A stretch of DNA of 64,000 nt from Monocercomonoides exilis PA203 (Eukaryota > Protista > Preaxostyla). Shown here piece after piece: positions 22,509 through 52,835 of this stretch. Each line of letters starts with the position of its first letter. Within the stretch, counting starts at the first letter, position 1. The stretch is taken from NCBI GenBank assembly GCA_001643675.2, contig LSRY02000021.1, forward strand, positions 248,001 through 312,000, in the 5' to 3' direction. A model generated the notes under the pieces. The model was not told the DNA's origin. It saw nothing but the letters and a program-made list of their open reading frames with translations, and did not search any database. The position numbers were made by a program, and so were the translations under genes.

Positions 22509-23557
22509 ATGGAATTTCCATCTCCTGAACAATTATCAAAAACGCATTATTATGGAAAAATCAACAAAATGAAACCAAAAAAGAATAAAAGATTATTTGC
22601 AGCAAAGAATGTTTCGAAAGAAATTCCTCGCTCCCTGCGCGATTTTGTTCCATCTTCCGGTAGCTCTTACAATCCCGATGAAAATTCACATCAAAAAGCG
22701 CTTGCTACAGCTGTTTCACATATTGTCAGAGAAGAAAATAAGCAAAAAATTTTATTGAAAAAAATAGGGAAAATCAGGAAATCTAAGGGCGATGTGTTGC
22801 AAATGAAATCACTAAAATCTCTTCTCAACTCCACAGATAATGAAAAAAAGAAAGAAGATGATTCTGACGATGATGATGTGTGATTTTCTGTTTTATTTGA
22901 TTTTATTAAGTTTTTTTCAGACATCCGAAGAAGATGATGAAATTAACCCGCAACGCCTTTCACGTTGGCAGCGTATCAGATTAAGAGGAAAACGAAATAG
23001 TGCGTTATTGAGAAGAGCTAGAATGAGAAAGATTGAAAATGAGGCACGAATTGCTGCTGCGGGCGGGAGAGTGGGAAAGTTGCATAAACCTGTTGAAATT
23101 ACACCTGAGAAAATTGCCCGTAGAATGAGGAAAAAACTGGCAAGGAAAAATAAGAAAGATGCAAAACAACTTGGGCGTCATAAGTTTGCTTTTTCTTTTG
23201 GATGGAAATCTTTAAATATTTTGAAATGAATTTGAAGGTTTCAAGATAAGCCAGATGAAGTTTTGCTTAGTGAAGAACTCCCTAAAACGCTTCGGCATTT
23301 GGCTACATCATCTCTGCCTCTTTTGGATTATCAACATTCATTAGAAGCAAATGGTTATATTGAGCCAAAGCATGTTGATCGGTTTGATTTTTCAATTTGC
23401 ATTAGCATGTTACATATACAATAATATGTATTATTACTTTTTTCAATTTTTCTTTTGATTTGAATTCATTTTTAGTGTAAAAAAAACTAAAAAAGTGTTG
23501 CATTCTCAAAATACAGCTGTTGCTGACTTTCTAAAAGATCAGGGAGTTGACGTGTAA
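22509..23557 (+). CDS. NOP53: Nop53/GLTSCR2-like 60S ribosome biogenesis protein (short form, multi-exon)
   Basis: Nop53-type motifs PSSGSSYNPDENSHQKAL and LGRHKF..PDEVLLSEELPKTLRHL...LDYQHSL..GYIEP, plus a basic central region. Confidence 0.8.
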
Positions 23558-23951
23558 TAATTATGTGAATAATTCTTTCATTTCATAATTAACATTTCAA
23601 TAAAATACTTCCATTTCACCATTTCAAATGAAAATAAAGAAAAATTCTGATATAAATGTATAGTTACAAATTTTCAAGTGTTATTCATAATTAATATGTT
23701 TTATTCTGGAACAATCATCACATAAGTAATTAAACACGTGACATAATTCCTTTAGGGGTATTTGAATAATTGAAAAGACTCCTTGCTTCAAAGCTGAAAC
23801 CATTCCAAGCTACAAAAGAGCGTAATCTTTATTCGTTAATAATTTGTTTCATTTATCTTTTAGTATTTTTAGGAATTTCTTTACAATAACATTTTTCTTC
23901 AAATGAAATTTAAAGTTTTTTTAAAGCAATTATTATTGAATTTTTTTTTGT

Positions 23952-24003
23952 TTTGTTTGTTTGTTTGTTTGTTTGTTTGTTTGTTTGTTTGTTTGTTTGT
24001 TTG
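23952..24003 (+). repeat. (TTTG)13 microsatellite inside the left TIR, mirrored as (CAAA)13 at 29241-29292
   Basis: Directly visible; same unit number in both arms. Confidence 0.95.
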
Positions 24004-24490
24004 GCGTTTTCTGGTTGTTTTATTTTTATTAAGGTTGGTAATTATTTTTGAAATCATAACTTTTTCGGGATATTGATTTTTCAAAAGTTGTTTGTCATGG
24101 GTAAGAGGTTTTGAATTCAAATTGTTGAATTATCACTCCTGTTTCAAAAACAAATGCTTCACCTGAAATAAACATGAAGATGTCTTTTGCAAAAAATTTG
24201 AACTTTTCAATGTTCGTTTGTAAATATTCAAGAGAAAATTTCGAACCGAATTTTTTGTTAGCAAAAGCATGATTTCTAAAATAATCACACAGGCATATTC
24301 GCTCATTATTATATTTGAAAACAGCAAAATGCAAGTATTTAGAAGAGATTTAAAAAAATACTAATGAATGTTTTGACGTGAATTTTTTTTAAGGTTTCCG
24401 TCATTCATGTAATTTTTGATGAAAATGTGTGTGCCCATAAAATACACACTAACCATTTCATCGTTAATGTTAACAATGGTGGACACTTTC

Positions 24491-24742
24491 AAGAGACATG
24501 GTATGTCAGCTATAGATCCATCTCGATTAGGTCAATCAATTTTATCTATTTATGTGTATCTGATGGTAGTTATCATTTTATATAATAAGTTGGAATAAGC
24601 AATGATAATTGATAGAGATCGAGAGTTATTGCTGTTATTCTTAGGGTTTATCATGACTAGATTTTCATTGATGTTCTATAAAGTTGGAGTTATTGATTGG
24701 TGTAATCGATATATGTCTATAGCTGACATACCATATCTCCTT
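24491..24742. repeat. Nested ~50-bp imperfect inverted repeat (24491-24540 / 24692-24742) inside the TIR, mirrored at about 28502-28753
   Basis: Perfect 19-bp core ATGGTATGTCAGCTATAGA versus TCTATAGCTGACATACCAT, with further pairing (TCGATTA/TAATCGA, CAATCAAT/ATTGATTG). Confidence 0.9.
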
Positions 24743-24904
24743 GGAGGAGAATTAGCTAAAAGATTAACTGGAATGTCGAAGATGGTGAAATTAGTGAAAA
24801 ACATGAGTTGTATGTTGAACGTGTTGTATGTTGAATGCGTTGGTGTGATCGTTGGAGGAAATCGTAAATAAAAATAATTGATTTTGTTTTTTGTTTTATA
24901 GTAA

Positions 24905-25147
24905 ATGGGTCGGAAGAAGATATACGCAACTGTTGAAGAAGCGAAAGCGGCTCAACAGAAACAAATTAAACAGTTTCAGGAAAAACGAAAGGAAGAAACT
25001 AAGTATTACAACGAACATGTATCTGAGAAACAGAAGATATTGATTAAGATATTGATGAGAAAGCTTATCGAAAGTGATGAGTTGTTAGATGAGTTGATGG
25101 AAAAAGTTAATGGTTATTTGCCTGCACAGGGTGGACAGGTTAAGTGA
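24905..25147 (+). CDS. 80-aa basic helical protein encoded in the left TIR (putative DNA-binding or accessory protein)
   Basis: Intact ATG ORF after a T-tract and TAAATG; N-terminal MGRKKIYATVEEAKAA followed by a charged helical region. Identical copy in the other arm. Confidence 0.65.
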   Translation: MGRKKIYATVEEAKAAQQKQIKQFQEKRKEETKYYNEHVSEKQKILIKILMRKLIESDELLDELMEKVNGYLPAQGGQVK

Positions 25148-25491
25148 GTGATGCTGCGACATGGAAATATTGTGTTAAATCTCCGAGCTTTTCATCCGCA
25201 CTGGTCGCATAGGATTCACCGGGTCATTTATATTCTAGAAATAATGTGGGCAAACGGACAAACTGAGAAAATTGGGAAAAATACATTTTATGTGAAAAGA
25301 GCTGCCAACATACCATTTCTGCCAACATGAGCATTTTCCCCTAATTTGCTATGATTTTGAGGGTTATCATTTAACTTCGACTGTATCATCATTTATCCAC
25401 ATTGCCACATGGTATCGTTGATGGCATACAACAAATGGAACACATATGTAGTATTGTTTTTGTATTAATGATTCCAAAAAATCGAATATGT

Positions 25492-27833
25492 TCAGTTAAT
25501 TTCCACAGAAAAGTCAATGTCATCTTCCTCTTCTTCTCGTTTGAGGAGTTGTTCAATCTCTGGCTTGAGTTTATAACACCACACTTGATTTCCTCTTAAA
25601 CCCATTTTCTTGTGCTCATACCTGTCTTTAATTGCCAGTTGGAATGAGCGATCGTTCTTGAATTCAACTGGTCTGTGACTGAGTGCATCAGAACATCTCC
25701 ACACTTCTTTGAGTTTATTGAAATACTCCTGACAGAACACATCGATGACAGAGAGTGATGCTGCAATGATATCTTCCTTTGCATCCGTTGTTGGAAAAGC
25801 CCTTGTGTTGAAATTGGTGAGATCTTTGCTGATGAAATAACAGAGAAGTTGTTCATAGAATTCGTTGTCGAAAGAGTTAGTGAAATCCTTGAAGAATGTG
25901 AGATTGTTCTTATATTTTGAGTTTCAATCACAAACAACATATCTTCTGTCACCAACCTCAATCTTTGCAGAGAATGTGTTATTTGTTACAAATATGAAAT
26001 TAGCTACGTTCTCAGCTGTTCTTCTTGACTGATTCTTCTCATTAATTCGAATAATGTTTTCTGTTATTTCAGACTTCAATGGATCAAAGTTATCTGTTTG
26101 ATCATCTCCAACATTCTTCAATTCGTTAAGAACAATCAACATTTTCACTTCGATGATGGAGCAAAATTGTCCTTTCAATTCCGCAATCTCTGTGACATTC
26201 GGACATGAATATCCTGCCAACAGTTCAGCAAGAACATTTGTCCAGACATTCTTTCCAATACCTTGCAAACCTTTGAGAACAAGTGAAATTCCTGCTTTTT
26301 TCCAGGATTTTGAACAATTGACGCAATCCGACAGAGGATGTTTTGATACAGCACTTCGTTGTCGTTGGAGATAATATCTCGTGTGAAATTGAGGAATGGA
26401 TGATGATTTTGTCATTTTGTTCATTTGTCATTTGGTATTCGAACACATGGAACAGAGAGAATATTCGGGAGTTTTCTGAGAAGAACTTCACACCATCGAT
26501 CGATAGAACATGAGAGTGTTGTTCGAAAGCTGTCTCAACTGTGAGAGTCTTTTTTATCATCATGCCGGAGTTTTATTGTTTTGAAGAGTTCGTACATTGT
26601 TGATTTTGTCTTAAATGTTATTGAGAAACAGGAGGAGTGAATGTCAAACTCTTTCACAATGAATTTTATCCTTGCTTCAACAAACCTCAGAACTTTTGTG
26701 ATATCTTCAGCGACTTCAGACAGTGAGGAGTATTGTTATCGACAAGCTTCATCCCTGATTTCAGAGAACAAAAACGATGAGTTGAGATATTTTTCATGGA
26801 CAGTAATCTCTCGTGGAGGTTCTTCCTTTTACTCATTCTCTTTTCAAAGGAGTGGAATGATCACATCGTTGTAATATGTTGGATTCCATCCTTTGACAAT
26901 CTTTTGAAGAAAAAATTGATGTGAGTTGTTGTCTCTGTACCTGTTTCGTTTCTCTTCAAAGTTAGTGATTGCATTTGCTGCTAGAGCAGCTGTATCTTTG
27001 ATTTGATTGAAAAAAAAATCTATCGATTGGTTGTCCAAACCGTTAATGTTGACGAGAAAGTTGAGAGCTGCAAATAACGGCAAAAGAGTTAACTCGGAAT
27101 CAAGTTTCAAAGAACCCACGTCGTTATGTATTTCAACATCTTTGAGTCCATCAACAAGAGCAAGAGCAACAGTTGGAGACATATCAACGACACCATCTTG
27201 TGTGAGAAGATTGTGTAGTTCAGCTGCCATTGCCACTGATGTATTCTCTGTTTTGAGAACAATACCGAATGCATCAAGAACACTTTCAAGTGGAGAAAGA
27301 TCTCTGAGCTCTCTGTAATTGTTGAGGGGAATGTATTTGGTGATGATTCTCTTGCCATCTTTTATCTCTCTGTATGAAGAGTCAGCTTGAACAACAAGCC
27401 TCTGTTTTCCATCTCCAACACCTGCAAAAATGTCGATGTCGAACTCTGGACTCGTGAACACTTTTGTTTGTGACGAGCATTTAAGGGGATAACAACACAG
27501 CTCACAATAAACATGAAGACCACCATGAGCTGTTTGTACAAGCCCGACAATTCGGTGGAGTTTGACGAGAATGGAATTCCTGATGGTTTTCGTTTGCTCA
27601 GGTTGAAGAGATATGTAAATGTCAACATCAACGACACAGAGATCCTCACATTTGCTGATATCAACGGCTGTTCCAGTGTGTCGTTGGCCCTGCTTCTTGT
27701 CAAAGTATTTCTTGTAGTCGAACAAGTCAACAAGGTGATCTTTCATTCGTTCTCCCAGCATTTGCTGTTCTGTTGACATTGAATCAATCAGTTGTTGGAT
27801 TGCGTTGTCAGTGTCTGTTTGGGGGTTTGTCAT
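25492..27833 (-). pseudogene. Disrupted Prim-Pol (AEP) + D5-like superfamily-3 helicase (DUF5906-type), ~780 codons when reconstructed
   Basis: N-terminal CVVDVD / QTAHGGLHVY / DIDI (AEP motifs). C-terminal GLQGIGKN (Walker A), LIVLNE (Walker B), FIFVTNN (motif C) and DRRY (Arg finger). In-frame stops at 26846, 26831, 26738 and 25926; frameshifts near 26560, 26400 and 26295. Confidence 0.88.
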
Positions 27834-27944
27834 TTTATAAAAATGAAAAAAACAAATTTATTTAGAAACAGATTTATTTTTGAAACGAAAATTGACAGGG
27901 AAGATGATGTTAAGGTTTATGTCGATAATAAATGATAACAGTAA

Positions 27945-29511
27945 CTTTTCACATAAAATGTATTTTTCCCAATTTTCTCAGTTTGTCCGTTTGCCCACAT
28001 TATTTCTAGAATATAAATGACCCGGTGAATCCTATGCGACCAGTGCGGATGAAAAGCTCGGAGATTTAACACAATATTTCCATGTCGCAGCATCACTCAC
28101 TTAACCTGTCCACCCTGTGCAGGCAAATAACCATTAACTTTTTCCATCAACTCATCTAACAACTCATCACTTTCGATAAGCTTTCTCATCAATATCTTAA
28201 TCAATATCTTCTGTTTCTCAGATACATGTTCGTTGTAATACTTAGTTTCTTCCTTTCGTTTTTCCTGAAACTGTTTAATTTGTTTCTGTTGAGCCGCTTT
28301 CGCTTCTTCAACAGTTGCGTATATCTTCTTCCGACCCATTTACTATAAAACAAAAAACAAAATCAATTATTTTTATTTACGATTTCCTCCAACGATCACA
28401 CCAACGCATTCAACATACAACACGTTCAACATACAACTCATGTTTTTCACTAATTTCACCATCTTCGACATTCCAGTTAATCTTTTAGCTAATTCTCCTC
28501 CAAGGAGATATGGTATGTCAGCTATAGACATATATCGATTACACCAATCAATAACTCCAACTTTATAGAACATCAATGAAAATCTAGTCATGATAAACCC
28601 TAAGAATAACAGCAATAACTCTCGATCTCTATCAATTATCATTGCTTATTCCAACTTATTATATAAAATGATAACTACCATCAGATACACATAAATAGAT
28701 AAAATTGATTGACCTAATCGAGATGGATCTATAGCTGACATACCATGTCTCTTGAAAGTGTCCACCATTGTTAACATTAACGATGAAATGGTTAGTGTGT
28801 ATTTTATGGGCACACACATTTTCATCAAAAATTACATGAATGACGGAAACCTTAAAAAAAATTCACGTCAAAACATTCATTAGTATTTTTTTAAATCTCT
28901 TCTAAATACTTGCATTTTGCTGTTTTCAAATATAATAATGAGCGAATATGCCTGTGTGATTATTTTAGAAATCATGCTTTTGCTAACAAAAAATTCGGTT
29001 CGAAATTTTCTCTTGAATATTTACAAACGAACATTGAAAAGTTCAAATTTTTTGCAAAAGACATCTTCATGTTTATTTCAGGTGAAGCATTTGTTTTTGA
29101 AACAGGAGTGATAATTCAACAATTTGAATTCAAAACCTCTTACCCATGACAAACAACTTTTGAAAAATCAATATCCCGAAAAAGTTATGATTTCAAAAAT
29201 AATTACCAACCTTAATAAAAATAAAACAACCAGAAAACGCCAAACAAACAAACAAACAAACAAACAAACAAACAAACAAACAAACAAACAAAACAAAAAA
29301 AAATTCAATAATAATTGCTTTAAAAAAACTTTAAATTTCATTTGAAGAAAAATGTTATTGTAAAGAAATTCCTAAAAATACTAAAAGATAAATGAAACAA
29401 ATTATTAACGAATAAAGATTACGCTCTTTTGTAGCTTGGAATGGTTTCAGCTTTGAAGCAAGGAGTCTTTTCAATTATTCAAATACCCCTAAAGGAATTA
29501 TGTCACGTGTT
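27945..29511 (-). repeat. Right terminal inverted repeat arm
   Basis: Reverse complement of 23733-25299. Confidence 0.97.
28097..28339 (-). CDS. 80-aa basic helical protein encoded in the right TIR (identical copy)
   Basis: Identical translation to 24905-25147; upstream of and co-oriented with the primase-helicase. Confidence 0.65.
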   Translation of the reverse strand: MGRKKIYATVEEAKAAQQKQIKQFQEKRKEETKYYNEHVSEKQKILIKILMRKLIESDELLDELMEKVNGYLPAQGGQVK

Positions 29512-29601
29512 CAATTTTACAAAGAAAACATTATATTTTTATCAAGAAATTACAAAACTGTAATCATTTTCGAAAAACAATTTCATTTCCCATATTTACT
29601 T

Positions 29602-32600
29602 ATGTCAACATTAACAAAATTGAAGTTTTCCAATTTATTTTTCTTTTTAGTTGGAATACTCCAATTCTTGGAATGTAACAATTCACATAATTTAATTAGG
29701 AATGAAAGGATTGGGATAAGTTCACTTTTTATTCATGCATCAATAGAACTGAACCTGTTCGAAAAAAACCAATTTATGCGTGAAAAGTGCTCAGATAGAA
29801 GCCAGATCACTCACTCAGAAGGAATAAACATAAATACTGTGCCTTGCCAGACTTGTGTTGTTTCGCATCTTGCTTCATTCAATTCGACAATAAGTGTTTT
29901 TTGTATTCAATTCAGTTGCGAGTTGGAAAAAGCAGTTGTGTCATTGTTTGGGAAATCATCGTTTTTTGTGAGCAACTGTATATTATCTTCGCCGAAACAA
30001 TTTCGAAATGGGCTTATTCATTCGTACGAGGCAAACATTTGCATTTGCAATTTATCTTTGGTTCAGTCTCATTCGAGCGTTTTTCTTCCTTCATTGATTT
30101 CATTTCCACCAACAAACATAGTTAGAGAACATCAAAGTTGCATCGAAATCAGGGACACTTCACTTTCATCTTTTTCCCTGTTCAATTCGAATCCACTTAT
30201 CCAATCATCAATGAATAACATCATAACGATACAATCCAGCTCCTTTCAAAACATTTCACAACAACAGCCCAAAAGCAACATATTTGTCGAACATAATGCA
30301 TCATTCACCATGTCATCCTGCATTGTTTCAACCGTTTCCAACCCAACAGAAGGCTGCATTGTTCAAAAAGTGTCAGGCGGGTCGCTTAATCTTTTAAATT
30401 CTACATTTGAAAGATGCTCCAAAACACTTGGTTCGAAAATAAACCACACAACAACAGAGGACACACTTGTAGACAATTGTTTGTATGAGAACGTTCGTGG
30501 TGTAATCATAACCCACAATTCAACAGGCTCTGCAATTATCAAAAACACAGACTTCAGAAATTCGACAAATTGCCAATGCATATGGGCTATTAGTTATCAA
30601 TTTTTAAAATCGATAAATAACGCATTCAATTCGGTTAGAACAACAAGCTACGCATCGTGCATTCATCCTTGCCAAGGGAATGGACCTTTGACGATCCAGA
30701 ACAATAACATGACAAATTGTGAGTCAAAATGGGGAGGTGGTTGCTTTCATATTCATACAGGATTTTCAAACGCTGATCTTATTTCGGATTGCACATTTAG
30801 TAATTGCTATACCACTGAAACTTCAACACAATGCAATGGAGGAGGGGCAGTTTGGAATGGTGAGGGAGCAAAAGTTTCATATTCTAATGTTGCATTTGAA
30901 AACTGTTGTGCAAATGCTACTTATGGTGGAGCCATCAGCTTTGCTTCGAGAGAAACTGCTTATACTCATTACAGTTCACTTTTTTATTGCTTGTTTATTG
31001 AATGCGATGCGTTTGGAGATGGCAAAGATATTTATGCAGCAAATCCATGGCAGAATGTGTTGAATGAGAGTCAATTTGTTCTCTGTTGTTCAAATAAGCA
31101 TTTGGAAGCCAATCGTCTGGTTTTTGCAGAGAAAGGAGATAAAAGCAGTTGGATTGGAAAGCTTGGCAACATTTATGCAGACGTCCATGGGACAGATACT
31201 TTGGGATGCGGATGGGCAAAGTTTCCATGCTTGACGATATTCAACTCTGTTGAGATTGCCGTTGTAGCGAGCAAAGGCAGTCCAGTGTTCATAAATATTG
31301 CAGCAGGTTCATTCGTGGAACGAGCACTTGCGATAGATTCAAAATGCCTTTCATTAAAAGGATCAAGCAATTTTGGAACGAAGTTGAGCGCCAGCACTTC
31401 AAATAGCAAAGCTCTTTTCCAAATATCAACTGGATGCGCCACTCTGTTTGGCTTGTTCATCATCAGAAACTCTTCAGCATCGACTTTTCTGTCTTTATTC
31501 ACCATTTCTTCTGCATCTGGAGAGCTTGTGCTCAGCTCGTGCAAAATTTCATCCGAACCATCACAAATTACCCCATTTGCAACAGCATTTGCATCCATTT
31601 CGACTGGCCACTTGAACATGTCAAAAACAACTGTTGAGTCGATGATATTTTCAGATGTGTCTGCTCTCCGGATTGAGTCATCGACATTGCATTGCTTCAC
31701 TTTTGAGAATACGACGTTCAGAGACATCATGCGAAGTGAAGGAAGCGGATCAATTTTTGATGTGACTTTAACTTCTGGTGATGAATTGAATCTGAATGAT
31801 CTGAATTTCGAAAGGTGTGCATGCAACAAAGGGAATGGAGGATCTTTGAATTGCATTCTGGAAGCTGGTGGAAAAGTGACAATCGGTTCCACAAAAAGAA
31901 TTGAAATGGAGGAATGCACAGTGCCGCAGGACATGTTCAACAAAGGAAAAGGAGGAGGAATTCATTTGAAGTTGACGGGGAGCTCATCAAACTTTGTAAT
32001 ACAGGAGACATCATTTTATGGATGTGCTGCTTGGAAAGGAAACAACGTATTTGTTGATGCTATTTCGTTAAGCTCGTCAGTCACAGCAAGCACATTAAAA
32101 TTTGTGCACACAGGGATGAGTGATGATGATCTGATGGGATTTGAAGATCAGTGCAGAACAGATCCGGTTCCACTTCTGGCATATCTTCAAGCATTTACAG
32201 GAACAGTGCTTGTTGGAGGATCCAAGAACAGAGATTTCTCTGGTTGCGGCACAGCCAATTATCCATGTGGAAGCATTGAATATGCAGCAACGCTTCGCTT
32301 TCCCAGAAGCAAAAGAATTGTCACATTGAATCAGAACTTTGAATGGACAGAGTCGGTGGTGTTTGATGCGTTTGGGTGGGAGGTGAAAAGCCCCACAAGA
32401 GGCAGAGAAATAAAAGTGTTGAGCGAAGGCACGAGCACTTCTGAAGGAATGGTTACTGTTGAGATTGCAACCTCCATTTCGAATCTGAGTTTTTCAGCAT
32501 CTTCACAATTAGGACAGCATTCTTGTTTTCTTTTGTGCCGATCTGAGGAGCTTGCGATGACTGATTGCTCGCTGAAATGTTCATCAAGCGGAAGCGCAGA

Positions 32601-35600
32601 ATTTGGTTTTGGGTTCATAAAGATAAGTGGCGGGAGCCTGCTATTGAATCGGTTTTCCACAGCTTCACAAGTGACCTTTTGTTCTGCTTCGTTTATCACA
32701 TTGGATGGATCAGGAGGATTTAGTTGCTCCGAAAGCAATATGAGCAGCATCAAGAGGACGTCTGGAAATGGAGGATGCATTTTAATTGCAAAGAACAATT
32801 TGTTGGCAAGCAACAGAAACAGGGAGATGGCAATCGATGGATGCAGTTTCAGTGATTGCTGTGTTCGTGAGGAAGGAGGAGAAGGAGGAGGAGTGAGTGC
32901 TTGGCTGAGCGAAAATGATATTCTGATTGTAAATGGCTCGGCTTGTTTCGAGGGATGCTGTACACCAAGCGAAGAAGGATGTGGAGGGAAAGGAGGAGGA
33001 ATAAGCATTCACTGTGACGATACGTCTTCTTCCTTCAGAACAATGAATGCGGTTAAATTTTCAAAGGTGAAAGGGAACGAAGCGGAATACGGAAAAGATG
33101 TGTTTGTCGGATGCGAGAGTAGGGTTTTGCTCTCCCAAATGATCAATTCGTCTTCTTTTGGATTTTTTGATTCATCGGAATTGCCGTCAGACGCTTTGGC
33201 TTTGAGCGGGAGCGAAAATGGAAGCTCTTTTCCAATCATTCCTCTGCATGTGTATCTCTGCAGTCTTCAGTCAGAAATTATCACAGGCAGCGACAATGGA
33301 GTTGATCATACCCATTGCGGATTTCCTTCTTTTGCTTGCATGTCAATTAATTATTGCATTGAAAATCGAATAAGCAGCTCATTGAACAACGTAAAGATTG
33401 TCTCCGGCTCGACAATAAAGCAGGAAATATCGATATCTTCCACATCAGTGAATATCTATTCCGAAGCGCTTGTGCCTGTTTCAGTTAAAGACACAGACGG
33501 AGCAACACAGGATGGGTTGGTGATGTGCTCTTCTGCTCTTTTCCTCGTGAATCTGTTGTTGAATGTGCAGAGAACATTTTTGGCAACAAGAAAAGCCTTT
33601 CTTTTCTCTTCATCGTCGCTTTCCATTGGCAACTGTTGGTTGGAATATTCCTCAGAAAATGTGAATGAGCCTGTTTCCTTCTGCGTGATCTATGTGAACA
33701 GCGGAGATCTGATGGTGAGTGGATTCAAAATGGAAGGGGATGCAACATACACATTTTCGCCAATTTGTGCCTGGAATTATAATGCTATCACAATAGAGAA
33801 CAGCAACATAACAGGAACAAGGAAGATAAATGGAGATGGCGGCTGCTTATATATCCACGAAGTGAACGGGGAAGAAAGAAGCATCACGCTCCAAAGGTGT
33901 AAGTTCAGTGGTTCATGCGATGAATGGAATGGAATTCGAGGCGGGGGAATCATGGGGAATGTTGGGAGTGGAAATGCACTTTGCGTAAAAAGCACATCTT
34001 TTGAGAACTGCATGGCGCCTTCCGATGGCAATGAAAATGGAGGGAAAGGATTAGGGGGTGGGATGTATCTTTTTTTGAACAAAAATGTCAAAAGCCTCGC
34101 CTTCGACAATATCAGTTTCAGTGGCTGCAATGCTTGGAAAGGAAAGCAGTTGTTTGTTGATGGAGAAGATCTGAGCCAGATTGTTGGGGATTGGCTGGAG
34201 TGCTTCAAAACAGAAACCATCTTGGCTGAAGATATGATGGGGTTTGAGAGAAGCACAACAAATCGAGAATTCCACATTCCGCTTGTGCTGTATTTCCGAG
34301 CATTTGTGGAGCCTTGCTTCATTGGGGGAGCAGAGGGAAATGGGTTTGATCACACAGGATGTGGATTTTCTGATTATCCATGTGGAACGCTGCCGTATGG
34401 GGGTTTTGTGCGATTTGGGGATTCGAAGGCGCATCTGAGGCTCACAGACCATTTCTGCTTTGCAGATGCGATTGTTTTGAGTTCGCAAGAAATGGACATT
34501 GAAGCAGAGGCAAACGGAACACTAATAAATGTGATGCCTGATGGAACAGGAGAAGGCGAGGGACTTGTCGAAACAAACAACGTTGTTTCATTCAGTGGAA
34601 TAACATTCAATGTTTCGACAACATTCGCAGCAGCAGAAAGAAAGTGTCTGTTCCTGTGCAGTGGCTCAGCCCTTTCGCTTGTTGATTGCTCGGTGAGCGC
34701 TCAATCGAAGAAGATTGGCTTTGGATATGTGATTGTGAGAGGCGGCAATCTCCATGTTCTGAGGGGAGTGCTGAACGAAATAGAACTGCTGGGAGCGCCA
34801 GTGGTTGAACTGAGCGGGGTGACCAGCCGATGTTCTCTGGAAGACGTGGAATGGAACAACCTGAAGACGGGATCAGTCGAAGGGCTGATTGCGGCTAAGT
34901 CCAGCAGCCATGTGGAAATGAAAAACTCGAAAGTGTCTGGGCCGACACAGTTTGGGAATCACGGGGTCTTCTTCGTTGAGGAATATTCGAGCGCAACACT
35001 GGAAAAGAGCAACTTCACCCTATTGACAAGGAATGAAGGAAATGGAGCAGTAATTGAAGGAAGAGTTGGAAGTGGGAAGGGTTTGAGTGTGAATTTTTGT
35101 ACATTTTCTTCAATCAGCTGCTTGGCGAGTGGCTCGAAAGGAGGAAGCATCATCACAACTGTGTCTGCCAACGGGGAGCTGCTGTTCAACAACAACACAG
35201 TCGAAGAGAGTAAAGTGAAGAAAGCGGATGGGCTGGGAGGAGGGATGCACATTGAATTTTTGAGCAGCGAGGTTGGATGCTCGATGAAGAACAACAAATT
35301 TTTGAGCAACGATGCGATGCTGGGATACGACGTGTATCTTGTGTGCCCCACTCCGCGAATGATGATCGACCGAAACAAGTGGGCAGGGTCAGCCACAGAA
35401 GAGCAGGAGGAGAAAACGATGTGGGTGATTGATCCATCGTTTCCAGAGGGGTCAGACACGCTTCTGAAGTATTTGTTTCCCAGATCCGACGAAATAATAT
35501 ATGTGAACATGCTCAATGGCCACGCAGACGGCTGCGGCGCTGACGATTATCCTTGCGAGGAGCTTTGGTACGCTTCTGGGAAGATGACAGAGGAGAAGCG

Positions 35601-38600
35601 CATCTTGCGAGTTCTTTCTTCTTGTGAATTGAGGGGAGCAATAGAGAGGGAAAACGAACCGATTACAATTGAAGGGAAAGAAGAGGACGGGAGTCGGGTG
35701 ATTGTGGGGAAAGAGGGGCATTTGAAGATGGCAGTTGGAACCATGTTCACAACACTGACGATTTCGAAGATTGGATTTGAGCTACCGCGAATATCAGATT
35801 TCAGCGAGCTTGTGGAAGTTGGTGTGGGCACAACATATTTTGTGGAGTGCACACTTGGGAGCACCGATCTGGAAGCATGTGCGGAGACAAGCATGCGGAT
35901 AATAACAGGGAGAGGAGGAAGGATCTCGTTGGATGGAGTGAACATAAAGAACATGGCATTTAATGTTGATTGCGGAATCTTTCTGAGTGGCGAAGTTGTG
36001 TGCACTTTTGATAATGTCGAAGTGAGCAACATCCGATCAAGCGGAAAAGGAATGGTTGTTGGAGAAGGCAGGACTGAGATTTTTCTGAATGAATTGAGAA
36101 GCACAAATTGTTCATTTGAGAACGGCGGATTTGTTGTGCTGAAGAAAGTGAAGGCCCTGAACTGGAAGAATGGGACGAGCATAACAGACAGCAGGAACGA
36201 AGGAGGGAACGGTGGGTGTGGATTTATTTCAGTGGAGGGAGAATGCGATGCTCAGATCAACGGGACAAGCATCTGCTCGTGCTCTGCAAACGAGGATCAT
36301 GGACGAGGAGGCGGGTTGTATTTGGACATTTCAGAGAATCCCCTGCTGAACATCAAACTGTCAGAAATAACATTTGCAGACAATTGCGCCTTCGAAGGGA
36401 AAGACATGTTTGTTGCAAGCACAGATGTGAATGCATCTGTTGTGAGACAAAGGTTTGCATTTCAGCTGCAGAACGAGAGAAACGAAAGCACTGTTGATTT
36501 GAAAGGCACAGATGATGCTTTGTTGGGCGAATCTGTTGTTGATCTTCTGCTATTCTTGATCCAAAGGAAGGAGAGTTCGATTGTTGTTTCAAAGAGCGGA
36601 ATGGACATTTTGGGGTGTGGAAGCGAGGAATTCCCTTGCCAGACATTTTGGAGAGGATATGAAAACATCGATTTGGAAGCACAAAATCAAATGATACAAA
36701 TTGATACAGGAGTAAATATCAAAAACCATTTCGATCTCTCATCGTTCAAAGTTGTGCCGAGTGAGGCAGATGAGAAGTGTGTGGTGCTGTTCGAGAATGC
36801 CCTGGAAGGAGGTGAAGAGAAATCAGTTATTCAGAACTCGAAAGAATTGAAGTTTGAATTGATTCAGTTTTCGCTTCCTTCTTCTTTCTCAAACAACGAA
36901 GGCGTTCTTCTTTTGTCTGAATCATTGTATTCTTGTCTTTCGCTCAATGGATGCACATTCAAGTGCAGCAGTGCGTCAGACTTGAAGTTTTGTCTTATTC
37001 ATTCTGAAGAAGGCGATGTTCAATTGCTGAATTGTGATTTAACTTCACTATCTTTTTCATCAACTCCTGTTCAGCTGAATTCTTATTGTGAAATAACCAG
37101 ATGCAATTTCTCATCGATATCTGCAAAGTCGAGTCAGAATGGAGGAGCGGTTTGTGTGGAGCTGTTGAATGAAGCGACATTTTCGATGAGCCAAACAGAA
37201 ACAGTTGGGTGCAGCTGCTCTGAAGAACAAGGGAAAGGAGGGTTTGTGTTTGTTGAGTGCCAGGGCGCTTCGGCTGACAATCCTTTTGTTTTTGGAGAGA
37301 ATGTTTCTTTTTCTGGACACAAGGCGCAGAGAGGGAAAAACATATTCATCTCGGCAGGCGATCTGAACACAACTGTGACGCTTTCAACATTCTGCTTTGA
37401 CTTCAGGAAAAGCAGAGAAGATGAACTGTTGTTTTGTGGGAGGGACTTGGTCTGGGAAGGCACCACCCTTCTCCGTTTCTTGGAGACTTTCACAAGCCAA
37501 ACAATATTTGTGGGATCTGGTGGATACGACGTGATGAGATGTGGAAGCAAAGAGGATCCGTGCAGGAGCATGTGGAAAGGGATGAGGCAGATAGACGAAG
37601 GTGCTCCGCAGAAGTGGATTAAAATAGCCGATGAGACGACTGTTCAGGATTCGTTCGTGCTCTCAAACTTTGCAATCGAATGCGATGAGACAGAGGAGCA
37701 AAGTCGAGGAAAGCTGATATTTTCGAGCCAGACAGCAGACAGGAGCGATGCAGGAATAAGCAGCGAGGGGACTGTGCAACTGAACAGGATTTCAGTTGTG
37801 ATGTCGGAAGGCTTTTACAACGAACGACTGTTTTGTATTGTTGGAAAAAGTGGGCAGATTGGGATGAGCGATTGCTCGCTTGCTGCCGAGACACGCGAAT
37901 CTGTTCCAGCGAAAGTTGGCTTTTTGATGATGGAAAGTGGAGTGTTGAATGCTACGAAGCTGACGGTTGAGAATGTGATATCAGAAATTTGTGTGCTTGC
38001 GATAAATAGCAGATGCGATTGTGTGCTTCAACAAGTCATGGCTTCCAAATGCACATTTTCTGGTGAAAGTTTTGCTAAAATAGTTTCAAGTGGAAATGAA
38101 AAGGAGAATGAAGTTGAAAGTTCAGTTTCAATCAAAGACTCAACATTCCAGTTGATCACCAGGAATGACAACGGGCCTGCGATTTTCAGTTCTTCAGGCT
38201 GCGCTGCGGTGCTATCACTCAGCGGATGCACATTCGATTCATGCAAGGCGGTTTGCTCAGAGAAGGGTGGAGGTGTTTTTGAGGAGCTTGAGAGTGAAGG
38301 AGCTCTTGCAATGATCAAATCATCAGTGATTCAGTGTGGATGCGACAACGACAACGGAAAAGGAGGAGGGATTTATATATGTTCCAGTTCTGGAGGCGCA
38401 CTATCATTTCTGTTTGAGAAGATGGCATTCAAAGGAAACAATGCGAAAGTGGGGAATGACATTTTTGTGGAGTGTATTGACATTGAGAGTCAGATCAACG
38501 AAACGCAGTTCCGATTTGACTTGAGAGAAACAGCATACATGCGGTTGAATGCTATTTACGGAATCGATACCACAAACCACAAAAGTGACACGAATCTGAT

Positions 38601-41574
38601 GGACTTCATCACTATCCACCAAGCAGACACGATTATTCTGTCATCAGATCCGTCGAAGAATGGGAAGAACGAGAGGCAGTGCGAAACGCTGAAGCTTCCG
38701 TGCCTGACAATGGACTATGGACTGGAACACTTGACGAGCGATGTGGAAAGCAGGCTTCTTGTGGATGTGGAGACGCTTGTCGAAAAGGAGATGGATCTGG
38801 AGGATTTGTCAATGGCTTCAAGGAAGGACGATGCTTCGAAAGTCACGATATTTCGTGATATTCCGCAAACAAGAGCATGCGTGATATCGATGGTTGGAAG
38901 TGTTTCTATTTTGAAGATTGAATTTTCTTTTGAGGTTGGATTTTCGTCTGCACATCGCAGTTTGTTTTCGATTGAATCAGGAAACATGAGCTTTCAGTTG
39001 TGCAGCTTCACACAACTACAAGAAGAAGGAAATAATCAAGCTGTTGGACTGACACTTATCTCTGTTGAAAACGGAGATGTGGGAATTGAGAAGACAAGCA
39101 TTCGCGGAATTAGTCTTTCTGGTGAATCAGCGATTCGAATTACGCATTCAGAAGGGAGAGTGGCATTGTCTGAGATAGAAGTGAGAAACGTTGAACTGAG
39201 CAAAGGTGTATTCATTCTTATTGAAGGAAAAGCATCTTTGGCCAAACAAGCAAGAAATGGAGAAGAGAGATTAGTTGATATGAAATCAGTTGAATTTGGA
39301 AATGTTTCATCTGGAAATGCAGAGAAAGGGGTTTTTGGATGCTCGCTGTTTGAGGGAGAAATTTATTTGGCAAATTGCTCGTTCTGGAAGACAAGCTCGA
39401 GAGCAGAAAGAGGAAGAGTGATGAGTGTTGAGAGATGCAGCAATGTGACGCTGGAATGGAATAAATTGCAAGGGGAGACAGGACATACAAAAAAAGAAAA
39501 AAGCAGCAAAACAAAGGAATTATGCAATTGGAACGGATCGCTGATTGACATGCAGAAGAGCAGAGTTGTAATGAAGGAAACAACGATTGCGAACAGCTCG
39601 GAGGGAGGAGCAAGTATTGAAGGGGGAAGCGTTGTGATTGAGAAAGGCGAGTTTGCAAATAACAACCCAGTGATAACAGGATATGAGTCGGCGCGAAGGA
39701 ATATGCTGTGCCAAGGGATGGGGAAAATGGATTTCATGAGCGTGAAAGGAGGGGATGGACAGGAAAAGAATGGTTCGTTGTGGATCCTTAACAAAGGGTG
39801 CACGCTCAGCGGGATAGCGGAAGAAAGAAGATCACCTTTGTTTATCCCTTCATTGGAAAGTGTGATTACGGAAGATGAAGGAACAGAATTGAAAGTGCTA
39901 TTCAAAGGACAACTTCTTTTACCATGCAACCTGTCATTTCGTGTAGTGAGAAGCGTGAGGAGTGAGGTGTTTGTGGAACGTTACGAGTTTGAAGCAGATG
40001 GAACGCTAACTGAAAAGGAAGTGGTAGGAAAGATACCATCGAAGAAGATCGAGGAGGCGGAAGAGGAAGCAGAAGTGTCAGTTTTTGTGTTGTTTGGAGA
40101 TGCAGATACACCATCAGTGACTGAAGGATTTGTGCTGAAGAACAAGAGCAAGACTCAGACAAGCGGAGATGAAAGGATTGCTGAAAGAGGAAAAGAAGGG
40201 AAATCATCATGGGCATTGATTGTTATCATTATGGCTATTGTTCTATTGATTGTTCTGATTGCTTCAATTGTTCTAGCTGTTCGATGGAGAAAGGCAAAGA
40301 ATGAAGCAGAAGATCTGAGAGAGATAGTGAATGATAACATCAAAAAGGATCCGAAGGCATTTGAAATGATAACAGTGGAGATGTCACCGGAGGAGCAATG
40401 GCGAAGGGCAGAGAGGGAAGCTGAGAAGAAGAATGAAGAGAGGATAAAGAAGAGAATATATGATACGAATATGCAACATTCTGAATCATCAGAGCATCTT
40501 CTATCTGAGAGTGGCTCAACAGAATATATTTTGGGGAGAGATTCAGACAAGATCCCAGAATGGATGCTGGAGAATGTTGATGTGAAAGAAGAAAATATTT
40601 CGAGAAAGAGAACACCATCTCCATCGGTCTCATCCATTTCATCCACATCCACAACTGATTCAGAATCCACTTTTGTTCGCATGGAAGATGCTTGTCCGAC
40701 CACCTCGTCGATGTCGAATCTGGTGGATGCCATGGCGTGTTCATCACCACACGAGAAGCTGATCGTGGACTTGAGGGATTCACTGTTCATGCTGCTGCAT
40801 GGAAGGAACGAGAAGAAGGAGATGGCGATTGGCACTCTGCAGGAGAGGGAGCAAACAGCTGCTCAGATCCTGTTCTGGGTAGCAAATGGAGCTCTTCACT
40901 CATTTGACGAGATGGAAAATCCCCTTCAGTCATTATCCAATTTGAGTCCCCACCTTGTGCTGTTCTCAGAACACATGGTCATCTGCATTGTAATGCATTC
41001 TGACTTATTGTCCGATGATGACTCAGATTCATCCTCTATCTCTTCGTCAACTGTTGTGACTTCTGCCAGCGATGATGATGATGATGAAGACTCTCTGCCC
41101 TCGTCTGCCTTTGAGGATGAAGATGACTTCAAAAAAGAGTGCCTGAGATGGAAGGCACCTGAGCTGCTGATCAACAAAAAGATGGGAGCAACAAAGGAAT
41201 CGGTGACATTCTCGATCGGGATGATGCTGTGGGAGTGCCTGACTCTTCAAATTCCGTTTGGTGATTATGAAGCTGTAACAGCAGGGGATAAGATTACAAA
41301 AGGAGAAAGGCCGAACTGCCAAATGCTCAGAGGACAGAAGTGTTATGAAATGGTTCGGAAGTGTTGGTCGGCCGATGTGTCAGAAAGGATGAGCCTGATG
41401 GAGATGAAGAAGGAATTTATCCAATTATTTCCAAGTGGATCGGCAATGCTGACTATGTCTGATGCAATTGGTATTATAGAGGCATGCGCAGGAAATGAGG
41501 AGGGATCACAAGCATGCTCATACACAATTGACAGCAATGGGGCAATTCGGTTGATTCAAAAGTGCGTACCATAA
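29602..41574 (+). CDS. Giant (~3,990 aa) single-pass surface protein: repeated beta-helix-like ectodomain, TM helix, degenerate kinase-like C-terminus
   Basis: Intronless ORF with a likely signal peptide from Met at 29602. Eight D-x2-3-C(G)-x4-PC-type units with GxGG motifs; TM WALIVIIMAIVLLIVLIASIVLAV-RWRK at about 40210-40290; kinase C-lobe remnants RWKAPE, FSIGMMLWECLT..PF, GERP. Confidence 0.88.
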   Translation: MSTLTKLKFSNLFFFLVGILQFLECNNSHNLIRNERIGISSLFIHASIELNLFEKNQFMREKCSDRSQITHSEGININTVPCQTCVVSHLASFNSTISVFCIQFSCELEKAVVSLFGKSSFFVSNCILSSPKQFRNGLIHSYEANICICNLSLVQSHSSVFLPSLISFPPTNIVREHQSCIEIRDTSLSSFSLFNSNPLIQSSMNNIITIQSSSFQNISQQQPKSNIFVEHNASFTMSSCIVSTVSNPTEGCIVQKVSGGSLNLLNSTFERCSKTLGSKINHTTTEDTLVDNCLYENVRGVIITHNSTGSAIIKNTDFRNSTNCQCIWAISYQFLKSINNAFNSVRTTSYASCIHPCQGNGPLTIQNNNMTNCESKWGGGCFHIHTGFSNADLISDCTFSNCYTTETSTQCNGGGAVWNGEGAKVSYSNVAFENCCANATYGGAISFASRETAYTHYSSLFYCLFIECDAFGDGKDIYAANPWQNVLNESQFVLCCSNKHLEANRLVFAEKGDKSSWIGKLGNIYADVHGTDTLGCGWAKFPCLTIFNSVEIAVVASKGSPVFINIAAGSFVERALAIDSKCLSLKGSSNFGTKLSASTSNSKALFQISTGCATLFGLFIIRNSSASTFLSLFTISSASGELVLSSCKISSEPSQITPFATAFASISTGHLNMSKTTVESMIFSDVSALRIESSTLHCFTFENTTFRDIMRSEGSGSIFDVTLTSGDELNLNDLNFERCACNKGNGGSLNCILEAGGKVTIGSTKRIEMEECTVPQDMFNKGKGGGIHLKLTGSSSNFVIQETSFYGCAAWKGNNVFVDAISLSSSVTASTLKFVHTGMSDDDLMGFEDQCRTDPVPLLAYLQAFTGTVLVGGSKNRDFSGCGTANYPCGSIEYAATLRFPRSKRIVTLNQNFEWTESVVFDAFGWEVKSPTRGREIKVLSEGTSTSEGMVTVEIATSISNLSFSASSQLGQHSCFLLCRSEELAMTDCSLKCSSSGSAEFGFGFIKISGGSLLLNRFSTASQVTFCSASFITLDGSGGFSCSESNMSSIKRTSGNGGCILIAKNNLLASNRNREMAIDGCSFSDCCVREEGGEGGGVSAWLSENDILIVNGSACFEGCCTPSEEGCGGKGGGISIHCDDTSSSFRTMNAVKFSKVKGNEAEYGKDVFVGCESRVLLSQMINSSSFGFFDSSELPSDALALSGSENGSSFPIIPLHVYLCSLQSEIITGSDNGVDHTHCGFPSFACMSINYCIENRISSSLNNVKIVSGSTIKQEISISSTSVNIYSEALVPVSVKDTDGATQDGLVMCSSALFLVNLLLNVQRTFLATRKAFLFSSSSLSIGNCWLEYSSENVNEPVSFCVIYVNSGDLMVSGFKMEGDATYTFSPICAWNYNAITIENSNITGTRKINGDGGCLYIHEVNGEERSITLQRCKFSGSCDEWNGIRGGGIMGNVGSGNALCVKSTSFENCMAPSDGNENGGKGLGGGMYLFLNKNVKSLAFDNISFSGCNAWKGKQLFVDGEDLSQIVGDWLECFKTETILAEDMMGFERSTTNREFHIPLVLYFRAFVEPCFIGGAEGNGFDHTGCGFSDYPCGTLPYGGFVRFGDSKAHLRLTDHFCFADAIVLSSQEMDIEAEANGTLINVMPDGTGEGEGLVETNNVVSFSGITFNVSTTFAAAERKCLFLCSGSALSLVDCSVSAQSKKIGFGYVIVRGGNLHVLRGVLNEIELLGAPVVELSGVTSRCSLEDVEWNNLKTGSVEGLIAAKSSSHVEMKNSKVSGPTQFGNHGVFFVEEYSSATLEKSNFTLLTRNEGNGAVIEGRVGSGKGLSVNFCTFSSISCLASGSKGGSIITTVSANGELLFNNNTVEESKVKKADGLGGGMHIEFLSSEVGCSMKNNKFLSNDAMLGYDVYLVCPTPRMMIDRNKWAGSATEEQEEKTMWVIDPSFPEGSDTLLKYLFPRSDEIIYVNMLNGHADGCGADDYPCEELWYASGKMTEEKRILRVLSSCELRGAIERENEPITIEGKEEDGSRVIVGKEGHLKMAVGTMFTTLTISKIGFELPRISDFSELVEVGVGTTYFVECTLGSTDLEACAETSMRIITGRGGRISLDGVNIKNMAFNVDCGIFLSGEVVCTFDNVEVSNIRSSGKGMVVGEGRTEIFLNELRSTNCSFENGGFVVLKKVKALNWKNGTSITDSRNEGGNGGCGFISVEGECDAQINGTSICSCSANEDHGRGGGLYLDISENPLLNIKLSEITFADNCAFEGKDMFVASTDVNASVVRQRFAFQLQNERNESTVDLKGTDDALLGESVVDLLLFLIQRKESSIVVSKSGMDILGCGSEEFPCQTFWRGYENIDLEAQNQMIQIDTGVNIKNHFDLSSFKVVPSEADEKCVVLFENALEGGEEKSVIQNSKELKFELIQFSLPSSFSNNEGVLLLSESLYSCLSLNGCTFKCSSASDLKFCLIHSEEGDVQLLNCDLTSLSFSSTPVQLNSYCEITRCNFSSISAKSSQNGGAVCVELLNEATFSMSQTETVGCSCSEEQGKGGFVFVECQGASADNPFVFGENVSFSGHKAQRGKNIFISAGDLNTTVTLSTFCFDFRKSREDELLFCGRDLVWEGTTLLRFLETFTSQTIFVGSGGYDVMRCGSKEDPCRSMWKGMRQIDEGAPQKWIKIADETTVQDSFVLSNFAIECDETEEQSRGKLIFSSQTADRSDAGISSEGTVQLNRISVVMSEGFYNERLFCIVGKSGQIGMSDCSLAAETRESVPAKVGFLMMESGVLNATKLTVENVISEICVLAINSRCDCVLQQVMASKCTFSGESFAKIVSSGNEKENEVESSVSIKDSTFQLITRNDNGPAIFSSSGCAAVLSLSGCTFDSCKAVCSEKGGGVFEELESEGALAMIKSSVIQCGCDNDNGKGGGIYICSSSGGALSFLFEKMAFKGNNAKVGNDIFVECIDIESQINETQFRFDLRETAYMRLNAIYGIDTTNHKSDTNLMDFITIHQADTIILSSDPSKNGKNERQCETLKLPCLTMDYGLEHLTSDVESRLLVDVETLVEKEMDLEDLSMASRKDDASKVTIFRDIPQTRACVISMVGSVSILKIEFSFEVGFSSAHRSLFSIESGNMSFQLCSFTQLQEEGNNQAVGLTLISVENGDVGIEKTSIRGISLSGESAIRITHSEGRVALSEIEVRNVELSKGVFILIEGKASLAKQARNGEERLVDMKSVEFGNVSSGNAEKGVFGCSLFEGEIYLANCSFWKTSSRAERGRVMSVERCSNVTLEWNKLQGETGHTKKEKSSKTKELCNWNGSLIDMQKSRVVMKETTIANSSEGGASIEGGSVVIEKGEFANNNPVITGYESARRNMLCQGMGKMDFMSVKGGDGQEKNGSLWILNKGCTLSGIAEERRSPLFIPSLESVITEDEGTELKVLFKGQLLLPCNLSFRVVRSVRSEVFVERYEFEADGTLTEKEVVGKIPSKKIEEAEEEAEVSVFVLFGDADTPSVTEGFVLKNKSKTQTSGDERIAERGKEGKSSWALIVIIMAIVLLIVLIASIVLAVRWRKAKNEAEDLREIVNDNIKKDPKAFEMITVEMSPEEQWRRAEREAEKKNEERIKKRIYDTNMQHSESSEHLLSESGSTEYILGRDSDKIPEWMLENVDVKEENISRKRTPSPSVSSISSTSTTDSESTFVRMEDACPTTSSMSNLVDAMACSSPHEKLIVDLRDSLFMLLHGRNEKKEMAIGTLQEREQTAAQILFWVANGALHSFDEMENPLQSLSNLSPHLVLFSEHMVICIVMHSDLLSDDDSDSSSISSSTVVTSASDDDDDEDSLPSSAFEDEDDFKKECLRWKAPELLINKKMGATKESVTFSIGMMLWECLTLQIPFGDYEAVTAGDKITKGERPNCQMLRGQKCYEMVRKCWSADVSERMSLMEMKKEFIQLFPSGSAMLTMSDAIGIIEACAGNEEGSQACSYTIDSNGAIRLIQKCVP

Positions 41575-52400: not shown

Positions 52401-52802
52401 CTCTCCCTTTTGTCGTCTTATGCTGTCTCATCTTTCTCTTCCTCTTCTTTCCTTTCCTCCTCTTCGTCTTCTTCCTCATCCTTCTCTTCTGCTTCTTCTT
52501 CTTCTTCACTTCCCTATTCAACCTCTTCCTCCTCCTCCTCTTCCTCTTCCTCTTCCTCTTCTTCCTCTCTCAAAACATCCACCACATTCGAACTCGACTC
52601 CTTTTTGAGAGACCTTCTCGATGAATCTCAGCTTCGTCGTCTGTTTCTGAATGAAAGTTGTGTCATTGTTCCTTCTCATCGCTCTCTCTCTCCTCACAGA
52701 CAGACAACAGAGCAGAGGAAAAGCTCTCTTTGGGCTTTGTTTGCTAACCCTGCTGATGTTGCTGCTTTGTCATCGTCTTCTTCCTCTTCCTCTTCCTCTT
52801 CT

Positions 52803-52835
<33 letters not shown>

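Follow-up and report, generated by a model that had tools for sequence, protein, structure and literature searches.

A 64,000-nt stretch of contig LSRY02000021.1 from the oxymonad Monocercomonoides exilis PA203 (positions 248,001-312,000 of the forward strand; hereafter the window) contains two long inverted arms that enclose a core of 2645 nt. The core is occupied by a broken gene for a replicase, which joins a primase-polymerase (PrimPol) to a superfamily 3 (SF3) helicase and a winged helix, and each arm carries a copy of the same small open reading frame (ORF). Four observations carry our account of this element: the identity and breakage of the core gene, its many diverged copies, its kinship with replicases borne by viruses, and the mosaic make-up of the arms. 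The principal features are as follows.

23728-25299, plus strand: left inverted arm of 1572 nt, without mismatch from 23733 onward
27945-29516, minus strand: right arm, a mirror image of the left one with a matching internal mosaic
25492-27830, minus strand: pseudogene for PrimPol, SF3 helicase and winged helix-turn-helix, with four premature stops and three frameshifts
24905-25147, plus strand: left copy of an 80-aa ORF, basic and coiled-coil-like
28097-28339, minus strand: right copy of the 80-aa ORF, identical to the left

The core replicase gene and the inverted arms

The core gene is disabled by seven lesions. By comparison with a full-length relative, four of them are premature stops, at 26846, 26831, 26738 and 25926, and three are frameshifts, near 26552, 26401 and 26298. 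Judged from its sequence, this copy of the replicase gene is dead. An earlier note on this DNA had described a replicon-like element whose core is filled almost entirely by one primase-helicase reading frame; the identity as an AEP PrimPol-SF3 protein stands, whereas the single frame does not, and the lesions speak against a working replicon in this copy. The window copy matches DUF5906 (E 5.7e-17). The domain layout is derived from P0003, an 804-aa relative that looks full-length and whose structure model has a mean pLDDT of 63. Residues 26-196 of the model match the PrimPol domain of pRN1 ORF904 (Z 9.5, rmsd 3.3-3.5, 150 aligned), and residues 466-757 match the helicase region of NrS-1 (Z 10.0). 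In addition, residues 682-777 match winged-helix folds with Z up to 7.2, a range that possibly means a common fold only. On the basis of this model, the core gene is predicted to encode a pRN1/NrS-1-type PrimPol with an SF3 helicase and a winged helix, in line with the primase-helicase identity assigned before. The family alignments show conserved DxD and GGxHxY columns, both of which are also present in the window copy. DUF5906 is found in all 31 family members compared, Pfam Prim-Pol in only one of them. Replicases of the pRN1, NrS-1 and SaPI types combine priming, polymerisation and unwinding with binding to an origin.

The two long inverted arms reported earlier are real. A repeat finder and a base-by-base check place them 13 nt further out at each end than first described, and the arms differ at one position in 1572 nt (23732). 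Both boundaries are sharp, and residual similarity extends neither inward nor outward; an older, diverged extension of the repeat inside or outside the perfect arms was rejected, since 439-851 of 1000 shuffles reach the same level. All frames in the arms are at most 91 aa long, and the core frames with a domain match are pieces of the replicase gene only, which agrees with the earlier observation that the element contains no transposase, integrase, PolB or capsid gene. No Rfam match lies within 23400-29700.

The 80-aa ORF faces inward in both arms, as had been noted. Its sole homolog, MONOS_17995, is 90% identical and is located on a contig of length 978,991; the replicase gene copy P0009 is also located on a contig of length 978,991, which indicates linkage and not adjacency. 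The ORF has no Pfam or PHROG match above a curated or convincing threshold, and its best match in the Atlas (0.90, to unnamed 67-aa proteins) is a lead only. Its intact state was rejected as a sign of selection, since about 0.7 lesions are expected in 240 bp at the lesion rate of the gene.

Arms of such likeness could be produced by a fold-back error of assembly, which we regard as very improbable here. The read data are assembled contigs from four DNA runs (X1-X4) of one sample, possibly the same as the one assembled. Depth was summed over these contigs and is used as contrast only, not as copy number; exact flank contigs give a single-copy depth of 34-40 in X1, about 107 in X2, 2.2-2.9 in X3 and 2.6 in X4. 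An artefact would fit the near-identity of the arms and the right inner junction, which is without an exact contig among the pieces listed. It would also fit the absence, among the read contigs of the four runs, of any record spanning the whole element. However, three junctions are crossed by exact short-read contigs: the left outer junction in X4 (23489-23922) and X1 (23490-23762), the right outer junction in X3 (29312-29627), and the left inner junction in X2, X3 and X4. Among the outer junctions, X3 gives only the right one and X4 only the left one. Moreover, the X1 contigs break where a branch at 23733 would demand it, while X2 passes the left boundary unbroken, and arm DNA private to the locus lies near two-fold depth in three of the four runs (59-65 in X1, 238 in X2 and 4.4 in X3 for 23733-24023 and 24311-24433).

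Mosaic make-up of the arms

Each arm is a mosaic and not a single repeat unit. From its outer end inward, the left arm is composed of the following segments, which the right arm mirrors.

23733-24034: outer segment private to the locus, 25% GC, with (TTTG)15 at 23943-24003, one- to two-fold depth
24035-24292 (mirror 28952-29209): insert of 258 bp resembling a miniature inverted-repeat transposable element (MITE), with imperfect terminal inverted repeats of about 20 bp and GG on both sides
24293-24433: second private segment, 26% GC, two-fold depth at 24311-24433
24447-24796: imperfect palindrome of 350 bp with CACTA...TAGTG ends and a conserved inner inverted repeat at 24493-24540/24692-24739 (48-bp, 83%)

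Depth at the level of the replicase family starts at 24434-24474 and covers about 850 bp beside the core, so at most this part of each arm travels with the family. The outer segments, about 720 bp in total, are seen only in these two arms, apart from the MITE insert, and no relatives of the outer arm at 80-85% identity were found in the read contigs. The earlier note had taken the 1.56-kb arms as the terminal inverted repeats (TIRs) of the element; because the outer 720 bp, apart from the MITE insert, are private, the arms at this length are unlikely to be the family termini. Its question whether the arms occur only at this locus receives a divided answer, the inner 850 bp having family-level depth and the outer 720 bp, apart from the MITE insert, being seen at this locus only. 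The segment 23733-24034 is likely host intergenic DNA copied to both sides, because the GC content of the outer arm (25-26%) resembles that of the flanking intergenic DNA and its depth is one- to two-fold.

The insert at 24035-24292 belongs to a separate, very high-copy MITE-like family. Its inverted ends (24038-24057/24269-24288) are 90% alike, the summed depth reaches 51,000-56,000 in the end bin, and other contigs carry unrelated loose flanks before 24037. Other members appear to start with TG, often after TA; their interiors vary and head-to-head pairs occur. One member joins the palindrome directly at 24494 in another copy. A join of 29209-TA-24035, found in one run, was considered as a hairpin telomere or circle junction and rejected, as it belongs to the MITE family.

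In its full form, the model of the earlier note held that the 1.57-kb arms are the termini of a linear replicon, which had recently been copied in trans, with panhandle replication keeping its ends identical, and was then inserted here. This is in line with the 99.9% identity of the arms, their sharp ends and the 4-bp AATT that flanks both of them. However, AATT reads the same on both strands, and 16% of random intergenic pairs show a match of 4 bp, for which reasons it was rejected as a target-site duplication. The outer arm is without relatives at the identity given above and is host-like in GC, depth reveals no near-identical donor, and the gene is dead. Taken together, these points make the linear-replicon model improbable. 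No direct repeat longer than 4 bp that could serve as a target-site duplication was found within -6 to +7 of either outer end, where the original flank, and hence any such duplication, may have been overwritten. The target-site duplication of Polintons is 5-6 bp long.

The palindrome at 24447-24796 exceeds chance (z -3.6; score 34 against a best of 14 in 200 shuffles) and is a candidate for the end or the origin of the family unit, or for a second MITE. In some contigs the far-side flank precedes 24493; this may reflect mapping onto the other arm or, as known from genomes with hairpin ends, flip-flop isomers. Three IMG/VR contigs match a 20-mer of the palindrome, which was set aside as chance, the contigs forming one related phage group and the match being 22 nt inside coding DNA. 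Direct repeats are located at 24803-24851, upstream of the 80-aa ORF (16-bp unit, 2.5 copies), and in other copies a 12-bp unit is expanded in tandem at the mirror position 28386 in an iteron-like manner.

CACTA-type transposons possess a CACTA end motif and produce a 3-bp target duplication. If the palindromes at 24447 and 28797 were ends of this type, the unit would be non-autonomous cut-and-paste cargo, moved by a host CACTA-type transposase with the replicase as a passenger. Family depth does begin where the CACTA motif begins, and 3.7 Mb of DNA transposons are reported for the M. exilis genome (PMC8767320). On the other side, the motif is short, the palindrome is flanked by ACA and AAA and thus by no perfect 3-bp duplication, and the flanks of the whole element are mirror copies and uninformative for a duplication. 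We give the cargo explanation only a small chance.

Oxymonad copies and virus-borne relatives

The core gene belongs to a dispersed family. The first 328 residues of the window copy are 85% and 73% identical to two M. exilis proteins, one of which is named 'putative Poxvirus D5 protein'. Nine named M. exilis proteins of the family are located on contigs of eight different lengths, and only P0003 looks full-length among them. At 80% likeness, the summed depth of the core is about 1,700-2,900 in X1 and 1,400-3,600 in X2, and it lies tens of times above the flank in all four runs. The earlier description of a multi-copy, dispersed mobile-element replicase is borne out by these named proteins and this depth contrast. 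The copies are diverged, the window gene differing from the contigs of other copies at 13-18% of sites. Outside M. exilis, the family includes 15 named proteins of Streblomastix strix, the five scored being 30-32% identical over the N-terminal region. In a profile search, 1,912 representatives were found at E up to 1e-30; full-length proteins (750-940 aa) are numerous among the best 150. For ten full-length relatives and the members of their clusters (P0030-P0045), 11 of the 15 contigs are only 2.5-3.6 kb long, near the 2645-bp core; cores bounded by repeats would break short-read assemblies to this size, and choosing full-length genes also favours it.

Contigs of other copies give a view of the DNA beside the gene. 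The arm lies upstream (5') of the gene in these copies as well: contigs matching 27603-28027 with 72-75 differences cross the junction at 27945 by 83 nt, and another diverged contig (27803-28080) crosses it by 136 nt. Beyond the 3' end of the gene, family depth continues (bin 25270-25546) and reaches about twice the core depth at 25333-25337. Two single-copy joints between opposite strands, recorded without direction, were found at 25418/28107 and 25492/28080.

Relatives are also present in virus-like contigs. Scans of metagenomes and metagenome-assembled genomes (MAGs) gave 15 and 5 loci, respectively, most of them too short to judge their context. The locus L020 spans 9.4 kb; its relative is full-length, with 40% identity over 670 aa, and is accompanied by an A32-like ATPase (E 0.002 for Pox_A32; E 2e-10 against the L006 ATPase, which itself matches Pox_A32 at E 9e-10) and an ORF similar to one in L008. 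L020 (1-9384) lies in a bacterial MAG, also carries DUF4108, and is probably a mis-binned virus contig from a gut protist. It contains in addition an 837-aa ORF with no match in Pfam, PHROGs or PDB sequences, which by eye looks similar to protein-primed PolB (pPolB); library matches lend this no support and no claim is built on it. The combination of pPolB with a primase-helicase is described as uncommon (PMC3671162). L008, L011 and L012 are near-identical and were counted as one virus, which has a helicase-only relative and an rve integrase (in L008 E 2e-4, weaker than the Pfam cut-off). Its 547-aa protein has language-model Atlas neighbours at 0.97-0.98 that include a Parabasalia cluster and capsid clusters, a lead only, with a single-sequence fold of pLDDT 27.5. 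L010 is another such near-identical gut-metagenome virus contig, and the helicase of all four is without the PrimPol half. In L022, the helicase adjoins a protein similar to the L008-type integrase (E 7e-11). L021, L022 and L023 carry relatives on short contigs assigned to prokaryote MAGs; these are likely contaminating DNA of eukaryotic viruses, because the neighbours in L021 and L022 match genes of virus-like loci. The IMG/VR scans gave nothing close, one of them yielding four phage loci at 22-28%, and in a first metagenome scan none of the 22 pattern matches was a relative.

A quick tree was built from 44 helicase regions, with none omitted. It joins the proteins of M. exilis to the Streblomastix copies and two unnamed proteins. 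This oxymonad group sits inside a wider group holding the virus contigs. With moderate support, this quick tree nests the oxymonad proteins among virus-contig helicases.

These relatives bear directly on a reading in which the locus is the ordinary, decayed end module (TIR, small ORF, replicase) of larger endogenous polinton-like viruses (PLVs), and the second arm is a one-off local inverted duplication. We consider this reading rather unlikely, although much agrees with it. The relatives sit in virus-like contigs, and PLV replicases commonly adjoin a TIR (PMC11296320). The supplement of PMC10120064 enters the number 6 for M. exilis in two tables, which we read as six capsid genes in one cluster in the M. 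exilis assembly. Moreover, the arm includes private DNA, so local duplication did happen, and only the 5'-side junction is seen directly in the diverged copies. Against an end module, the gene copies (nine named and the window copy) outnumber the six listed capsid genes. The family depth past the 3' end of the gene, about twice that of the core at 25333-25337, is what would be expected if the arm adjoins there too, and none of the 24 loose ends listed, of about 960, leads into another gene.

Origin of the element and comparison with known systems

The explanation that we favour, with confidence at about the midpoint, is that the locus holds a dead copy of a dispersed oxymonad replicase family, likely a PLV remnant devoid of capsid and integrase, and that its arms were likely equalised by recent recombination at the locus and not by a recent jump. 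Divergence between the arms amounts to 0.06% of sites, against seven lesions in the gene and its divergence of 13-18% from contigs of other copies; most likely, one arm is so close to the other because it was recently copied onto it at the locus. Exact-match depth reveals no near-identical donor copy, the arm sequence being at about two-fold depth, which these two arms alone account for. Local repair is preferred because, had a dead element jumped recently, its near-identical donor should still be present, except where this was cut out. Metamonads are described as lacking non-homologous end joining and relying on homologous repair (PMC8516963), and arm lengthening through such repair has been proposed for Galileo (PMC3573991).

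According to this explanation, the family would derive from a PLV by loss of its virion and integration genes, much as transpovirons are proposed to have arisen from PLVs that lost the virion module (PMC5499653). The family unit would consist of an arm of about 0.85 kb with the palindrome and the 80-aa ORF, the replicase, and the same arm inverted, together about 4.35 kb (24447-28797). In intact copies, the arm palindrome may serve as an origin to which the winged-helix tail binds, the SF3 hexamer would unwind the DNA, and the PrimPol would prime and copy it without a terminal protein. PLV inverted repeats have been proposed to double as origins for an adjacent primase-helicase (PMC11296320), and by analogy this proposal would fit the arm palindrome. 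Insertion may be provided by an integrase acting in trans from a complete endogenous virus, or by host recombination. In the present copy, decay would have come first, followed by homologous repair between the arms that copied one over the other; the repair tract would have run about 720 bp into the flank, duplicating host DNA together with the MITE and erasing any target-site duplication.

A number of observations weigh against the favoured explanation. The complete arm-gene-arm structure has been seen at this one locus only, the data on other copies being read contigs and named proteins, and in other copies the arm is shown on the 5' side of the gene and only suggested on the 3' side. The relatives with long enough context sit among other virus genes and not alone. 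Long inverted repeats were found in none of the eight related loci tested (short contigs), and none of the relative loci compared matches either the 80-aa ORF or the DNA of the arms. Near the oxymonad clade, SH-aLRT values in the quick tree are only 80-92. The doubled depth of the private arm DNA is seen in X1, X2 and X3 and not in X4 (2.6-2.7), and the depth values, as contrasts, do not count copies. In addition, the documented extension of Galileo arms goes inward, whereas the extension here would go outward.

A bolder proposal can be put forward tentatively, and we hold it to be possible but doubtful: oxymonad nuclei may carry self-copying elements of about 4.4 kb, in which a PrimPol-SF3 replicase lies between ORF-bearing, palindrome-tipped arms. 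Such elements would need no terminal protein and no integrase of their own, and would insert by priming into chromosome breaks in a host without end-joining. If true, they would be the first nuclear, TIR-bounded solo AEP-SF3 replicases and the SF3 counterpart of transpovirons.

Among known systems, Dictyostelium plasmids of the Ddp2 type, with their single rep gene and long inverted repeat, served only as a candidate comparison. A close likeness is to the solo mobile AEP and AEP-SF3 replicases of Polisuviricotina, which are proposed to move without integrases; the examples are an element with an AEP only and, in Bodo saltans virus, 11 copies (bioRxiv 10.64898/2026.10.13.758929). The present family is multi-copy and the locus described here has no integrase; mobility is hypothetical in both cases. 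Unlike those replicases, the present family is scattered through a cellular nuclear genome, without an endonuclease beside it; its long inverted arms carry a small ORF of their own, whereas the Bodo saltans virus copies are without flanking repeats (10.64898/2026.10.13.758929).

AEP-SF3 fusions are a known replication module of PLVs, the elements of Metamonada forming an ungrouped outlier set (10.64898/2026.06.19.733378). With the Maverick-Polintons and PLVs of Metamonada, the element shares this module and relatives at about 40% identity beside A32, rve and capsid-like genes, and its inverted arms are possible counterparts of their TIRs. It differs from them in size (4.4-5.8 kb versus 15-30 kb) and in the absence of capsid, ATPase, protease, integrase, recombinase and pPolB genes; in particular, the major capsid protein and A32 ATPase of PLVs are absent between the arms and present beside the relatives. 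Polintons (Mavericks) are defined by pPolB and an rve integrase (PMC5499653, PMC11296320). Neither is found here, where the core is fully taken by the replicase, and while the inverted arms are real, their outer half is private to the locus. Transpovirons and Tlr1 are likewise small, TIR-bounded, capsid-less PLV derivatives built round a helicase (PMC5499653, PMC3671162). Both use an SF1 helicase fused to an inactivated pPolB (PMC5499653), and transpovirons possess 6-8 genes and depend on mimiviruses, whereas the present element has an SF3 helicase with a PrimPol and two types of ORF.

The replicases pRN1 ORF904, NrS-1 and SaPI5 PriRep share the arrangement of PrimPol, helical domain, SF3 helicase and winged helix (fold Z 9.2-10) at 10-19% identity, but serve prokaryotic plasmid, phage and satellite replicons and not nuclear TIR elements. 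Galileo of Drosophila has long TIRs that are 98-100% identical within a copy and are lengthened by recombination repair; it is a P-superfamily transposase element that recruits internal sequence, whereas the added DNA here lies outside the family arm (PMC3573991).

By gene content, the element fails the tests for Polintons, PLVs, Tlr1 and transpovirons, yet it would work like a PLV end module. The earlier statement that it fits none of the known classes agrees with these failed definitions and is overstated in other respects, as the same PrimPol-SF3 family replicates PLVs of gut protists and solo, repeat-bracketed AEP replicases have already been proposed. The idea of self-moving solo AEP-SF3 replicases is therefore not new, while a dispersed nuclear family with inverted arms would be a variant not described before and a good test case. 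Our literature searches, with subscription papers and Repbase outside their coverage, found no description of this replicase family. Unclassified repeats make up 35% of the M. exilis genome, and the family is unmentioned in the covered parts of the corresponding report, including a term search of four supplements (PMC8767320).

Replicase-only elements are invisible to surveys of endogenous DNA viruses that rely on capsid genes. If the arm-gene-arm structure holds family-wide, a cultured protist would offer a direct test of whether AEP-SF3 replicases move alone, and part of the 35% of unclassified repeats (PMC8767320) would be classified. If it fails, the locus is a warning that near-perfect long inverted arms can arise locally, marking neither the ends of an element nor a recent jump.

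The neighbourhood of the element consists of ordinary eukaryotic genes. Its left neighbour is Nop53, whereas the frame to its right, of 4052 codons, closes with a kinase domain; 9 of the 17 frames scanned around the element have Pfam matches. Further to the right, a 3197-codon open frame at 50373-59966 contains low-complexity tracts and has no Pfam match at E 1e-4. The 4052-codon open frame spans 29416-41574, and the right arm stops about 85 bp before its likely start; with its kinase end, this frame is a typical member of the kinase family whose expansion has been described in M. exilis.

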